DNA of 64,000 nt from a virus (IMGVR_UViG_3300045539_000055:176-64175); one strand, 5' to 3'; positions 12,867 to 16,999 are shown, counted from the first letter of the stretch. Notes: generated from the letters alone by a model not told the origin. Numbers and translations are program-made.

Positions 12867-12884
12867 GGAGCGGGAAACCGCTCC
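12867..12884 (+). other. GNRA hairpin abutting hammerhead 1
   Basis: GGAGCGG-GAAA-CCGCTCC, no U-tract. Confidence 0.8.
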
Positions 12885-12935
12885 GCTGTATGCGGATGAG
12901 TGTCCGCACTGATGAGCCCAAGAGGGCGAAACAGC
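12885..12935 (+). ncRNA. Type III hammerhead ribozyme 1
   Basis: GCUGUA^UGCGGA-UGAGUG-UCCGCA-CUGAUGA-GCCC-AAGA-GGGC-GAAACAGC; predicted cleavage after 12890. Confidence 0.95.
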
Positions 12936-12954
12936 AACCTAAAATTTATGAGTT

Positions 12955-13146
12955 ATGAAATTAGAAATTTGTTTAAAATCGTTTGCCTTAGCGGTAGTTT
13001 ATTTGTCCTTAGCTGTAGCCCTTACAAGCGGGAAAGTTCAGGAGTTGATTAAATTCAATTCAGTTGACAGCGAGATTTTTATGTGTGTCCTTTGCGGGAG
13101 TGCGGGCTTGCTTTGTCTAATCGCTTCAATCAAAGTAAAGCGATGA
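12955..13146 (+). CDS. 63-aa two-TM membrane protein flanked by hammerheads 1 and 2
   Basis: ORF track; two hydrophobic helices. Confidence 0.65.
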   Translation: MKLEICLKSFALAVVYLSLAVALTSGKVQELIKFNSVDSEIFMCVLCGSAGLLCLIASIKVKR

Positions 13147-13178
13147 TAGTGCGAGAGGGTGGCGATTAAATGCGGGGA

Positions 13179-13194
13179 GTGTCTTCAAAGACAC
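13179..13194. repeat. 16-bp palindromic repeat copy abutting hammerhead 2
   Basis: GTGTCTTCAAAGACAC. Confidence 0.9.
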
Positions 13195-13243
13195 CCGTAC
13201 AAGGATGAGTGTCCTTGCTGATGAGTTCAAAAGAACGAAACGG
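13195..13243 (+). ncRNA. Type III hammerhead ribozyme 2
   Basis: CCGUA^CAAGGA-UGAGUG-UCCUUG-CUGAUGA-GUUC-AAAA-GAAC-GAAACGG; predicted cleavage after 13199. Confidence 0.95.
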
Positions 13244-13266
13244 AAACCTAATCTAATCTAATCAAG

Positions 13267-13413
13267 ATGAGTAAACAAGACAAGGCGAAAGCCAAAGAAC
13301 AGCACAGAAGAGCCACAGATTTTTATGCGTGGTTGGAAAAAATGGGGAATGTTTATATGGCAGACACCCGCAGAATGGACAGAGCAATTTTAATCGTGAT
13401 TGAAAATGTGTAG
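13267..13413 (+). CDS. 48-aa early peptide
   Basis: Manually translated, MSKQDKAKAKEQHRRATDFYAWLEKMG...; starts 24 nt after hammerhead 2. Confidence 0.6.
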   Translation: MSKQDKAKAKEQHRRATDFYAWLEKMGNVYMADTRRMDRAILIVIENV

Positions 13414-13648
13414 CGTGGAGCAAATTCAGGAGGCAATACTTCGGGATGGAGTAGCCTTCATAAATGTGTGGTCGCAAGATTGCGATGGAGTTCAGGCACA
13501 ATACCACAAAGAGTTTCAATCGGTGGAGGATTTTTTAGCGTGGGAGGTGGATTTTTACGAGTGGGCAGAGGGTAGCCAAGGCTATAGCCTAACAGACAAA
13601 GACAACCTCGATGAGTCGGTTACGTGGGGTGGATGGGGCGATTACTAA
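13406..13648 (+). CDS. Small acidic early protein
   Basis: ORF track; D/E/W-rich; likely ATG 13406. Confidence 0.6.
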   Translation: MCSVEQIQEAILRDGVAFINVWSQDCDGVQAQYHKEFQSVEDFLAWEVDFYEWAEGSQGYSLTDKDNLDESVTWGGWGDY

Positions 13649-13699
13649 GCCCCGCCAAGCCCCATAAACAAAGGGAAAATGAAAATAAATGAAATTTTA

Positions 13700-13731
13700 T
13701 TTGGTAGTGTCGATTACTCGTTCTATCTTTG
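13700..13731 (+). promoter_or_regulatory. Early promoter (-33 TTTG / -7 TATCTTTG)
   Basis: Consensus Bacteroidota promoter; near-duplicate of 15688-15719. Confidence 0.8.
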
Positions 13732-13765
13732 TCGAAATTTAGTTCATTAATCTAATCTAATCACT

Positions 13766-13957
13766 ATGAAAATTATCACAGACCGCAGAGTTTTGAATGC
13801 AGTAGCAAAGAAACACGATTTAAGTTTTTGCCCAAAGTATAAGTATTACGATGGCGATGACTATGACTTGCCTCGAGAGTTTATCTTAAATGGCAGAGTT
13901 TACATTTTAAAATATTACGATGGATGTTTCAATCCGTTTTTAACTTTAATTAATTAG
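13766..13957 (+). CDS. Small early protein
   Basis: ORF track; KYYDGCFNPF motif. Confidence 0.6.
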   Translation: MKIITDRRVLNAVAKKHDLSFCPKYKYYDGDDYDLPREFILNGRVYILKYYDGCFNPFLTLIN

Positions 13958-13972
13958 TGTCTTCAAAGACAC
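13957..13972. repeat. 16-bp palindromic repeat copy (at gene boundary)
   Basis: GTGTCTTCAAAGACAC overlapping a stop codon. Confidence 0.9.
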
Positions 13973-13988
13973 ACAAAACCAATTTATT

Positions 13989-14869: not shown

Positions 14870-14889
14870 AAATTTAAAAACAAAAAAAA

Positions 14890-15267
14890 ATGAGCAATCT
14901 AACAAAAGTTGTCGATGGCTTTTTATGGCTAATCGTAACGGACAAAGCAAAAGAAATTTTTATCAGCGGGCTATTCGACTTGTACATCCTACACGATGAT
15001 AGTTCAGAGAGCTTAATCGAAGGCTTCGGGCAGTTGGTTGAGGCACTTGAAAACGGAATGGACATCGGAATTGAAGGCGGGCATTTGCCTAAGAAGGAGA
15101 CCCAAGCAGACCTACAGAAAGAGCTTGTACAGAAGTCAGGCATCAACATCGTAACGTGTGGAGAGTGTGCAGAGGTTATGTTACACAGAGTTACAGACGA
15201 GGTTGTAGTTTGTCCTTTTTGCGAGTTTTCTAACGACCCTTGTCATTTTCCCGACTTATATTATTAA
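14890..15267 (+). CDS. Early protein with C-terminal Zn ribbon
   Basis: CGEC...CPFC...DPCHFPDL. Confidence 0.7.
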   Translation: MSNLTKVVDGFLWLIVTDKAKEIFISGLFDLYILHDDSSESLIEGFGQLVEALENGMDIGIEGGHLPKKETQADLQKELVQKSGINIVTCGECAEVMLHRVTDEVVVCPFCEFSNDPCHFPDLYY

Positions 15268-15285
15268 TCACTAAATCAAATAAAA

Positions 15286-15534
15286 ATGAGCATTATCAAA
15301 ATCACAAAGCAAGATTGGAAAACGATTAACCCGACAAAAACGGGAATTGATAACCAAAAATTAGACAGAGAGTACACTATTTTATTCAACACGAATGAAA
15401 TGATTACAGCAAAAGAAAGCGAGCACGGAGGCACATACATAACCTACAAAAAGGCTATGGTGGATGGAATGACTTGCAAAGAAACATTAGACGAAGTTTA
15501 CGCCCTTATTTGTGCATCAGATGGAAGCAACTAA
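15286..15534 (+). CDS. Hypothetical protein
   Basis: ORF track. Confidence 0.6.
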   Translation: MSIIKITKQDWKTINPTKTGIDNQKLDREYTILFNTNEMITAKESEHGGTYITYKKAMVDGMTCKETLDEVYALICASDGSN

Positions 15535-15676
15535 ATCATTCAGCGTGTATTACGATGGAGTGTACGTTCAGAACGTAACAGCCCACAGCGGGTTCGAGGC
15601 AATAGACAAAGTTTTCTATTTGTACATAGAGAAACACCCGACCCTCGAAAGAAAAAAATTCAGTACTAAAAAATAA
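15521..15676 (+). CDS. 51-aa early peptide
   Basis: Manually translated, MEATKSFSVYYDGVYVQNVTAHSGFEAIDK... Confidence 0.5.
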   Translation: MEATKSFSVYYDGVYVQNVTAHSGFEAIDKVFYLYIEKHPTLERKKFSTKK

Positions 15677-15687
15677 TTCAAAATAAA

Positions 15688-15719
15688 TTTGGCAGTGTCG
15701 ATTACTTGTCGTACCTTTG
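15688..15719 (+). promoter_or_regulatory. Early promoter (-33 TTTG / -7 TACCTTTG)
   Basis: Consensus; spacer AGTGTCGATTACT shared with the 13700 promoter. Confidence 0.8.
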
Positions 15720-15748
15720 TCGAATATTAGTTTATTAATCAGGATTCT

Positions 15749-15764
15749 GTGTCTTCAAAGACAC
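15749..15764. repeat. 16-bp palindromic repeat copy between promoter and GATase start
   Basis: GTGTCTTCAAAGACAC. Confidence 0.9.
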
Positions 15765-15786
15765 TATCCGCAAATCAAATCAAATT

Positions 15787-16917
15787 ATGTGTGTTATCAT
15801 TATCAAACAAAAAGGTTATCAAGTGTCTCAGGAAATTGCAAAAACATCCGCAAGGATTAACCCTCACGGATTGGGGATTGTGTGGCTCGATACTTTTGAT
15901 GTTACTTACCACAAGTCAGCAGAATACAAATTGCTTGACACAGACCGCCCATTTATTGCTCATTTTAGATACGCTACTGTTGGGGCTATAGGCAGACAAA
16001 ACACCCACCCATTTCAGTGTGGCAATAACAAAAACGAGTACCTAATGATGAATGGTACAATCAAGGGGCTTGGCAATATGAAGCAAAGCGATTCAAAGGT
16101 ATTAGCCGACAAACTTGGAGGCATACCTCGACCACAATGGAAGTCAGAGTTGGCTCAATACGATTGCCGATTCACTACGATTAACGTGCAAAACAAATCG
16201 TTTCAGATATACAACCGAGAGGATTGGATTCAGAAAGATGGCGTTTGGTACAGCAAGGAGAATGTACTTGAAGATAACTATGTTGCAGTGTATGGTACAC
16301 TAAAGAAAGGTTACTCAAACTATTGGCACTACCTATCAGGAACTAACTTTGTAGGCAGTGGAACGACCACAGACAAATACCCGCTTGTAGTTAGCGGATT
16401 GCCTTACCTCATCGAAGATAAAGGTTTAGGGCACAATGTGGATGTAGATGTGTTTAGAGTTACGGATTCAAAGATAAAGAGTTTAGACCAATTAGAGGGG
16501 CATCCGAGATGGTATTGCAGAAAGCAAATCAATATCACAATCAAGGGAAAGCAAGTCCTTTGTTGGATTTACTTTAACCTCAAGGAAGTTGCAGATAACA
16601 AAGTGTTTCACAAGTCCTACGTTCAGGCTAAGCCAAAATTTCAGACCTTTGGTAATTACGGAACAAGTCCATACCGCTATGTTAAAAGTTCATACCCAAA
16701 AAGATATGATACCATACCCGCTAAGGCACAGCCTCAGAAAAAAATGTTTCAGGATTGGTTCTCCGATGTGGATGATACACCCGAGTTTGATGTGCAGAAT
16801 GAGACACCTATGTGTGTTGCTTGCTACAATGACTTAGTGTTTGATGGGTTCAATAATTACCATTGCAGTAGCTGTAACACGTGGCACTCAGAGGCAGATG
16901 TATTGAGAAAGTTTTAG
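15787..16917 (+). CDS. Class II (Ntn) glutamine amidotransferase fused to gamma-glutamylcyclotransferase (AIG2-like) and Zn ribbon
   Basis: N-terminal MC, NPHGLG, HFRYATVG, NTHPF, NGTI, SDS; then VAVYGTLKKG and LDQLEGHP.WY.R; CVAC...CSSC. Confidence 0.9.
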   Translation: MCVIIIKQKGYQVSQEIAKTSARINPHGLGIVWLDTFDVTYHKSAEYKLLDTDRPFIAHFRYATVGAIGRQNTHPFQCGNNKNEYLMMNGTIKGLGNMKQSDSKVLADKLGGIPRPQWKSELAQYDCRFTTINVQNKSFQIYNREDWIQKDGVWYSKENVLEDNYVAVYGTLKKGYSNYWHYLSGTNFVGSGTTTDKYPLVVSGLPYLIEDKGLGHNVDVDVFRVTDSKIKSLDQLEGHPRWYCRKQINITIKGKQVLCWIYFNLKEVADNKVFHKSYVQAKPKFQTFGNYGTSPYRYVKSSYPKRYDTIPAKAQPQKKMFQDWFSDVDDTPEFDVQNETPMCVACYNDLVFDGFNNYHCSSCNTWHSEADVLRKF

Positions 16918-16928
16918 TACCTTAGGGA

Positions 16929-16944
16929 GTGTCTTCAAAGACAC
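16929..16944. repeat. 16-bp palindromic repeat copy in extended hairpin abutting hammerhead 4
   Basis: GGGA-GTGTCTTCAAAGACAC-TCTC. Confidence 0.9.
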
Positions 16945-16948
16945 TCTC

Positions 16949-16999
16949 TCCGTATCGAGATAGTTGTCTCGACTGACGATTCCAAAAGGATGAAACGGA
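16949..16999 (+). ncRNA. Type III hammerhead ribozyme 4
   Basis: UCCGUA^UCGAGA-UAGUUG-UCUCGA-CUGACGA-UUCC-AAAA-GGAU-GAAACGGA; U-U replaces the first stem II pair; predicted cleavage after 16954. Confidence 0.9.

Follow-up and report, generated by a model that had tools for sequence, protein, structure and literature searches.

A cluster of four predicted compact type III hammerhead ribozymes, each abutting a hairpin, at gene junctions of a viral genome

Introduction

Multiple hammerhead ribozymes flanking single genes were described in prophages by Perreault et al. in 2011, who proposed that these ribozymes process long transcripts into gene-length mRNAs (PMC3088659). In the part of that paper drawn on here, three tandem arrangements were cut in vitro and one in E. 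coli, using polycistronic constructs of ~2 kb, and the hammerhead HHphage of the haloviruses HF1/HF2 is located 13 nucleotides (nt) upstream of a start codon within a polycistronic early transcript, a 5' end having been mapped within three nt of the cut site (PMC3088659). The purpose of bacterial and phage hammerheads was still called undefined in the relevant part of a 2019 review (PMC6765202). Here, we report on four putative type III hammerheads, termed HH1 to HH4, and the hairpins adjoining them, which are located between positions 12,867 and 16,999 of a 64,000-nt stretch of viral DNA from the IMG/VR database (IMGVR_UViG_3300045539_000055), hereafter called the window. The window comprises bases 176-64175 of the 64,175-bp record, which has direct terminal repeats and is rated 100% complete.

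The cluster resembles the clustered prophage hammerheads in that several ribozymes lie close together in one orientation and are co-oriented with varying phage genes, and the role proposed for both is the same as far as the accessible part of the 2011 paper goes (PMC3088659). The author of a preliminary description of this DNA knew of no characterised system with this regular cassette, but the idea of such processing is not new. Compared with that part of the earlier work, all copies here have one compact form (helix I of 6 bp with a 6-nt loop, helix II of 4 bp with a 4-nt loop, helix III of 4-5 bp), although the supplementary alignments of 2011 may already include it; moreover, a hairpin abuts helix III in 64% of the copies of the family, 40% carry a U.U mismatch in helix II, and the hosts are most likely Flavobacteriia (PMC3088659). 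With the Rfam family RF00008 (Hammerhead_3) the four elements share a full-length alignment, the topology and the core, whereas, compared with its consensus, they lack 4 nt in helix II and its loop and have 5 additional nt in loop I; their scores are 34-45 bits.

Two further systems, one natural and one synthetic, may be compared. In phage T7 RNase III cuts the polycistronic early transcript between genes, leaving hairpin-ended upstream messages and 5'-phosphate and 3'-OH ends. In the locus described here, in contrast, the RNA itself would cut, generating 5'-OH and 2',3'-cyclic phosphate ends, and the hairpins (8-10 bp) are much shorter than RNase III substrates, i.e. the likeness is an analogy of outcome, not membership. 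In synthetic ribozyme insulators such as RiboJ a hammerhead in front of a coding sequence cuts off the upstream context, so that the downstream message starts with a defined and structured 5' end. Here the element is natural, and the accessory hairpin precedes the ribozyme, being part of what would be the released 5' fragment, instead of following it.

Results

The four elements share one order of parts, which can be read directly from the sequence: stem III, U-H at the cut site, stem I with loop I, CUGANGA, stem II with loop II, GAAA, and again stem III. We scored them with RF00008 and with R1, a covariance model built from the four window copies. HH1 (12885-12935, + strand) consists of stem III GCUGU/ACAGC, a 6-bp stem I (UGCGGA) with loop I UGAGUG, and stem II GCCC/GGGC with loop II AAGA; the cut is predicted after A12890, and the scores are 45.1 bits (RF00008) and 80 bits (R1). 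HH2 (13195-13243, +) has a stem III of only 4 bp (CCGU/ACGG), stem I CAAGGA, loop I UGAGUG, stem II GUUC and loop II AAAA, with a predicted cut after A13199 (34.1 and 76.3 bits). In HH3 (14819-14869, +) stem I is UCAAGG, loop I UAAUUG, stem II GCCU and loop II AUCA, and cleavage is predicted after C14824 (45.1 and 75.9 bits). HH4 (16949-16999, +; predicted cut after A16954; 34.2 and 77.4 bits) contains stem I UCGAGA, loop I UAGUUG, loop II AAAA and a stem II of UCC plus a U.U at position 10.1-11.1 (CUGACGA-UUCC-AAAA-GGAU-GAAA). In all four, three helices are arranged around the core, I and II being closed by loops and III being open, and the catalytic core is complete, i.e. CUGAUGA or CUGACGA, GAAA, and GU-A or GU-C with a non-G at H17. 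Thus, the full core claimed in the preliminary description is indeed present, H17 (A, A, C and A) falls exactly at the four cut sites it had named, and the loop features it had listed, a U-N4-G loop I and a 4-nt loop II ending in A, recur in each copy.

RF00008 aligns end to end (model positions 1-54) to all four elements, with E-values from 1e-7 to 1.5e-4 in a 6-kb search; an E-value scan of the whole window recovered three of the four and a genome-level model search all of them. The pattern CTGANGA-N12-GAAA occurs four times in the window as compared with 0.30 expected, a number reached in 0/100 shuffles. With filters switched off, R1 finds only these four copies in the whole window (75.9-80 bits), which all lie on the coding (+) strand within 4.1 kb. 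No fifth or decayed copy was detected in the 64-kb window, the next best R1 match having 15.2 bits, a broken core and a location inside the open reading frame (ORF) 11262..11900, and no other ribozyme class emerged from a whole-window Rfam scan at E <= 1. The sequences of stems I and II had been listed correctly in the preliminary description, which had also stated that they differ from copy to copy and still pair: among the four paralogues, standard pairs make up 96.7% of the 60 pair cells, and both sides are changed in 10 of the 15 pairs, which was observed in 0/500 shuffles (slid controls: 33-47% paired). We have great confidence in their identity as genuine type III hammerheads of a compact form, which are under selection.

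For a comparison across related viruses we used a sample of at least 118 loci from an IMG/VR scan with a pattern in which the geometry and the two terminal bases of loop I are fixed. R1 has 120 matches in the first 80 of these loci and 54 in the other 38, and together with the four window copies there are 164 distinct sequences with flanks. Many of the loci share the groEL-like gene, the gene for a gamma-glutamyl cyclotransferase (GGACT) domain protein, a gene for a 318-amino acid (aa) protein and the primase gene with the window, with a DNA identity of 65-75%. Ten near-complete relatives (43-63 kb) contain 1, 2, 1, 2, 3, 3, 3, 5, 2 and 5 copies, which are co-oriented and located within a few kb. 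In 112 distinct relatives found by the pattern 95.7% of 1654 cells pair, with 572 double-changed cells versus 159 after shuffling. Over all alignments, including those of the four paralogues and of the gene-anchored copies described below, slid controls give 27-48% paired cells.

As this first sample had been selected by the ribozyme itself, a second one was chosen by the 318-aa gene alone, resulting in 56 loci, 54 of which contain the C-terminus of the gene and at least 150 nt downstream. In 43 of these 54 loci a hammerhead starts 20-95 nt behind the 318-aa homologue (30-90% aa identity), and all hammerhead matches in this sample (90/90) are on the strand of the gene, so that the synteny for which the preliminary description had proposed a check does exist in related phages. 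The compact form is found throughout this family of uncultured Flavobacteriia phages. In 7 gene-anchored loci no hammerhead was found within 2.5 kb of the homologue. The 78 distinct gene-anchored copies are paired in 97.3% of 1169 cells, with helix I being 100% paired and covarying in 6/6 pairs, and in one relative (L044, with values of 89% and, overall, 94% identity) the HH1 orthologue shows a compensatory swap from C-G to A-U in stem II. Helix III, in contrast, is almost always C-Y-G-U and varies far less than the other two helices. In spite of the variation of the stems, the loops are conserved: in 145 parsed copies loop I is UGUGUG in 65 and UGAGUG in 25 cases, its end bases being fixed by the search pattern, and loop II is AAAA in 78 and GAAA in 30 cases. 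This supports only indirectly the suggestion of the preliminary description that the loops may be those of tertiary-stabilised hammerheads, in which a contact between loops I and II is needed for activity at cellular Mg2+.

A G10.1-C11.1 pair closing helix II is 'typical of canonical HHRs' (hammerhead ribozymes), in the wording of the part of PMC4209133 used here. HH1 to HH3 retain this pair, which is replaced by U.U in HH4. Among the 145 parsed copies G-C is found in 78 and U.U in 58; the U.U copies comprise 35 different stem I sequences and a covarying stem II, and both kinds are present together in 13 of the 32 loci with several copies. Only few gene-anchored copies (6/78) have U.U or another non-pair at this position, so that U.U is enriched at other junctions, e.g. 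that of HH4.

The ribozymes follow conserved genes, at their 3' side, and precede variable ones, as homologues of the genes in front are common in the pattern-selected loci (318-aa gene: 33, GGACT gene: 31) and those of the small ORFs behind are rare (63-aa ORF: 1, 97-aa ORF: 4). For the GGACT homologues, 15 of the 31 loci have a hammerhead within ~300 nt downstream.

Each ribozyme is part of a recurring layout, for which the preliminary description had claimed a position after a stop codon, directly behind a hairpin and ~19-24 nt before the next ATG. The stop codons upstream of HH1 to HH4 end at 12858, 13146, 14787 and 16917, the hairpins abut stem III in all four cases, and the distance from the last base of stem III to the next ATG (12955, 13267, 14890 and 17018) is 19, 23, 20 and 18 nt, respectively, i.e. 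18-23 nt. In front of HH1 stands a private GC-rich stem, GGAGCGG-GAAA-CCGCUCC (12867..12884, +), which begins 9 nt after the stop of the 318-aa gene (11902..12858, +; conserved, function unassigned) and whose last base abuts stem III; the same stem is listed from the opposite strand in a terminator scan. Behind HH1, 19 nt past stem III, follows the 63-aa ORF (12955..13146, +), which has an alternative ATG at 12948 and is without a Pfam match. HH2 is abutted by a palindromic hairpin, GTGTCTTCAAAGACAC (13179..13194, +), whereas HH3 and HH4 adjoin 10-bp hairpins that contain this palindrome, located at 14795..14818 (+; palindrome copy at 14799) and 16925..16948 (+; copy at 16929), each 7 nt after a stop codon. 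The stop codon before HH3 is that of a hydrophobic 23-codon ORF (14716..14787, +), which was read by eye and is below the cut-off of the ORF list, and the one before HH4 (16917) ends the 376-aa GGACT-domain gene (15787..16917, +). As a side observation, the 23-codon ORF and a 42-aa ORF (14559..14687) suggest a run of tiny membrane peptides.

In their native context, HH3 and HH4 are predicted by RNAfold to adopt a minimum free energy (MFE) structure that consists of the hairpin and the complete three-way junction (HH3: z -5.14). The layout recurs in the family. In 104 of 163 copies helix III is preceded at a distance of 0-2 nt by the end of a hairpin with an MFE <= -10 kcal/mol, as compared with 26 of 971 control windows located 100-240 nt away; this energy criterion replaced a loose count of hairpins with at least 6 bp, which 253 of the 971 controls passed. 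The next ORF with an ATG and at least 30 codons begins 10-29 nt past the end of the model in 100 of 154 copies (median 22). Judged from these sequence comparisons, the order hairpin-ribozyme-leader-ATG is a conserved cassette and not a coincidence.

The 16-base palindrome GTGTCTTCAAAGACAC is also found apart from the ribozymes, within ORFs and alone at gene ends, with 13 sites in the window versus 0.61 expected (9324, 10989, 11904, 13179, 13957, 14526, 14799, 15749, 16929, 21978, 26365, 34556 and 59072). Twelve of the copies are asymmetric at the centre, and by our own reading the orientation of this centre agrees with the direction of transcription in 10 of them. As a GTGTC...GACAC stem precedes the hammerhead in many viral contigs (54/164 copies), not only the structure but also the sequence of the palindrome seems to be kept. 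The terminator scan revealed no terminator-like site on the + strand after the hairpins, where a U-run is missing.

The genes between ~11.2 and 29.5 kb of the window are oriented rightward, and those from 29.5 kb to the end leftward, the latter comprising long ORFs that look structural. The rightward block encodes a Sak-type annealing protein, a PDDEXK exonuclease-like protein, a BT4734-like/DUF5906 primase-helicase and an SNF2 helicase as well as, according to Pfam, a Kyano_Gp96-like protein and the GGACT-domain protein. A 472-aa ORF (52009-53427) is similar to structural proteins in 68 records of Flavobacterium phages (Elemovirus), 15 of Cellulophaga phages and one of a Maribacter phage (25-52% identity), with a 70% match in MW202828.1, an uncultured podovirus from a spring, and the matches of the primase-helicase agree with these phage relationships. 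Based on the matches of both proteins to Flavobacterium, Cellulophaga and Maribacter phages the host is most likely a member of the Flavobacteriia. The virus itself appears to be a marine, podovirus-like phage of ~64 kb, and the region of the hammerheads may be regarded as one of early/replication genes, 'early' being suggested by the gene content. A search of GenBank phage DNA with positions 11500-19000 gave a single weak match, which lies in the GGACT gene of MW202828 (378 bases, 65%). The phage also encodes a chaperonin of the GroEL/Cpn60 family (8381-9997, minus strand; Pfam E 5e-58), which shows 65-74% DNA identity across many related viral contigs.

Two promoter-like repeats, TTTG-N20-TAnnTTTG, lie between the ribozymes and were judged against the promoter consensus of Bacteroidota. 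The first (13700..13731, +), with the spacer AGTGTCGATTAC, may mark where a second transcription unit starts within the region. Behind the second, nearly identical one (15688..15719, +) lie a hairpin consisting of the palindrome only (15749-15764) and then the gene with the GGACT domain. Both have the form TTTG-G-N-AGTGTCGATTAC-N8-TA-NN-TTTG and precede a gene start by ~35-70 nt. The general pattern TTTG-N17-23-TAnnTTTG is not enriched in the window (7 versus 4.7 expected, 20/100 shuffles), only the presence of two nearly identical copies with a common spacer being notable, and a scan for sigma-70 promoters (44 sites versus 33 expected) is uninformative for a Bacteroidota host. The repeats are probably internal promoters that split the region; thus, HH1 and HH2, HH3, and HH4 would probably belong to three successive transcription units and not to one operon.

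Sequences of relatives are present in two metatranscriptomes, which match as assembled contigs (shares 0.17 and 0.07) with short pieces that are 90-99% alike. A contig of 836 nt bridges the HH1 site (12200-12965) and two pieces begin shortly past HH3 (14883 and 14902), these contigs being without end or strand information and DNA carry-over being possible.

The same ribozyme form occurs beyond this family. All three Elemovirus genomes tested (NC_055853.1, MT497017.1 and NC_062743.1) have one copy each with an intact core, which matches R1 with 33.5 bits. In NC_055853.1 this type III hammerhead (17865-17921, minus strand) lies in the divergent gap between gp59 and gp58 and ends 13 nt before the start codon of gp59; it is unannotated in the records. 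The 472-aa structural protein of this virus, which infects Flavobacterium sp. BAL314, is 46% identical to that of the window, but its single hammerhead heads a leftward gene block and is not part of an array. Phage phi18:3 gave only a 19.9-bit match. In GTDB genomes the compact form is frequent, mostly in contigs of metagenome-assembled genomes of Patescibacteria (93 stretches; 119 model matches in the best 80 of the 93). The layout is looser there, an abutting hairpin being found for 38/105 copies versus 74/614 controls and an ATG at 10-29 nt for 23/97, so that the hairpin cassette would only weakly qualify as a general property of the ribozyme class. In contigs binned as Patescibacteria/Saccharibacteria, we further observed UGNGUG as loop I, NAAA as loop II, and arrays with up to 6 model matches per 8-kb locus.

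Discussion

Our findings argue for genuine compact type III hammerheads that would cut between genes and leave hairpin-protected upstream ends, a combined reading to which we assign a probability of roughly 70%. According to this reading each ribozyme would cut its own rightward transcript of early/replication genes after H17, i.e. after positions 12890, 13199, 14824 and 16954. The upstream RNA would retain a stable hairpin and a 6-nt tail that, following the chemistry of the ribozyme class, should bear a 2',3'-cyclic phosphate, and the downstream RNA would start with a 5'-OH and helices I and II, followed by an A-rich leader of 18-23 nt before the start codon. The geometry suggests that before the cut the abutting hairpin may stack on the short helix III (4-5 bp), and that after the cut it may serve as 3' end structure that protects the released upstream mRNA. 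In this way a conserved gene and the small variable ORFs that follow it would be separated without a protein, so that the two parts could differ in stability and translation. A purpose as mRNA punctuation is thus plausible, and we are moderately confident of it.

Several observations weigh against this reading. All four copies score below the gathering threshold of RF00008 (48.5 bits), which is why a default Rfam scan is empty, although this threshold is a property of one model and not a biological feature, and control genomes likewise yield sub-threshold matches. The check with Infernal and Hammerhead_3 proposed in the preliminary description gave a full-length alignment of every element and not a single score above the cut-off. 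Helix III comprises only 4-5 bp, and in the MFE structures of HH1 and HH2 helices I and II form, but competing pairings displace helix III. The lack of G10.1-C11.1 in HH4 and in the 58 of 145 copies with U.U means that slow or inactive copies may be among them. The copies counted in the pattern-selected sample do not represent independent events, as the pattern fixes the geometry and the ends of loop I and as many loci are related. No copy was found in MW202828, the closest relative in GenBank (70-75% aa identity), nor in phi38:1, Calle_1 and Panino, so that a hammerhead is dispensable for such phages. Finally, hammerheads are located at 4 of the 13 junctions among 14 rightward ORFs (11262-17311). 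Of the initial notion of an array punctuating the early operon, the array of four at gene junctions stands, whereas the punctuation covers only these 4/13 junctions and the operon is probably interrupted by the two promoter-like repeats.

Instead of being a tuned expression device, the units might mainly be boundary elements of exchangeable accessory-gene cassettes, which travel with small variable ORFs or mark their insertion. The uneven conservation of the genes on the two sides, with one and four homologues of the ORFs behind the ribozymes versus 33 and 31 of the genes in front, would fit this idea, as would the variation in copy number from 0 to 5 among relatives and the occurrence of the palindrome hairpin by itself at gene ends and within genes (13 sites). 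Moreover, the identity of the flanked genes varies, and hammerheads are frequently found in selfish elements, as stated in the part of PMC3088659 used here. Nevertheless, a ribozyme has been retained at one junction in 43 of 54 relatives, even where the adjacent gene has diverged to ~40-55% aa identity, and the structure and the core are under strong purifying selection, which a mere recombination scar would not need. We thus consider boundary elements an unlikely explanation, which is, however, compatible with cutting between genes and does not exclude it.

Somewhat less probable still is that the ribozymes act as conditional or graded switches, with the U.U copy (HH4) and the copies with competing folds (HH1 and HH2) being slow or conditional and setting product ratios. 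The U.U in 58/145 copies and the mixture in 13/32 multi-copy loci point in this direction, since 35 different stem I sequences and a covarying stem II beneath the mismatch indicate maintenance of U.U and not decay. In the MFE folds of HH1 and HH2 the strands of helix III are engaged in other pairings, and regulated cleavage has been raised for slow phage variants in the part of PMC3088659 considered. On the other hand, no ligand- or protein-binding domain is visible in the 51-nt ribozyme, and the alternative folds stem from a nearest-neighbour model that ignores tertiary contacts.

Cleavage by two ribozymes followed by ligation, giving rise to circular or spliced RNAs, is highly improbable. 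Hammerheads do catalyse the reverse reaction in viroid-like RNAs, and helix III alternates in the window (GCUGU, CCGU, GCUGU, (U)CCGU). However, of the 6 possible orders of two A and two B copies 2 are strictly alternating by chance, a helix III of 4-5 bp favours product release, and spliced or circular products of clustered hammerheads were sought and none found, as far as the part of PMC3088659 used here reports. Alternating helix III identity was also rejected as a rule of the family, as neighbouring copies in relatives differ no more than by chance (18/43 versus 23.5 expected, 26/60 versus 32.6). That the motifs are non-catalytic structured spacers or terminator-like elements which happen to resemble hammerheads can practically be dismissed: all four are under the Rfam gathering score and each adjoins a strong hairpin, but the invariant positions are exactly those of the catalytic core (CUGANGA, GAAA, U-H) while the helices are free to vary, the hairpins lack a U-run on the + strand, and a ribozyme behind a terminator would be untranscribed and therefore unselected.

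Returning to hammerheads that cut between genes, one may tentatively go a step further and regard hairpin, minimal hammerhead and A-rich leader as one modular 'punctuation cassette' of Flavobacteriia phages. The hairpin would first act as fourth helix and then as protective 3' end, the ribozyme body would provide a 5' cap-like structure for a plugged-in accessory ORF, and the U.U subclass would be deliberately slower or conditional and thus set processing ratios. We regard this elaboration as possible rather than probable.

In its outline the locus repeats a pattern published in 2011, and the advance is incremental, consisting of the abutting hairpin, the fixed leader, the U.U subclass, the anchoring behind conserved genes and a relative that can be cultivated. 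In the literature, with subscription journals being sparsely covered, we found no report on hammerheads in Flavobacterium or Cellulophaga phages, on the Elemovirus copy or on a hairpin that abuts helix III. The default threshold of Rfam misses this whole class of compact phage hammerheads. The phage family, with one ribozyme form, conserved junctions, variants with 0-5 copies and a core variant with U.U, constitutes a clean comparative system for the purpose of hammerheads, and in the cultivated Elemovirus with its known host, Flavobacterium sp. BAL314, cleavage and effects on expression could be tested.

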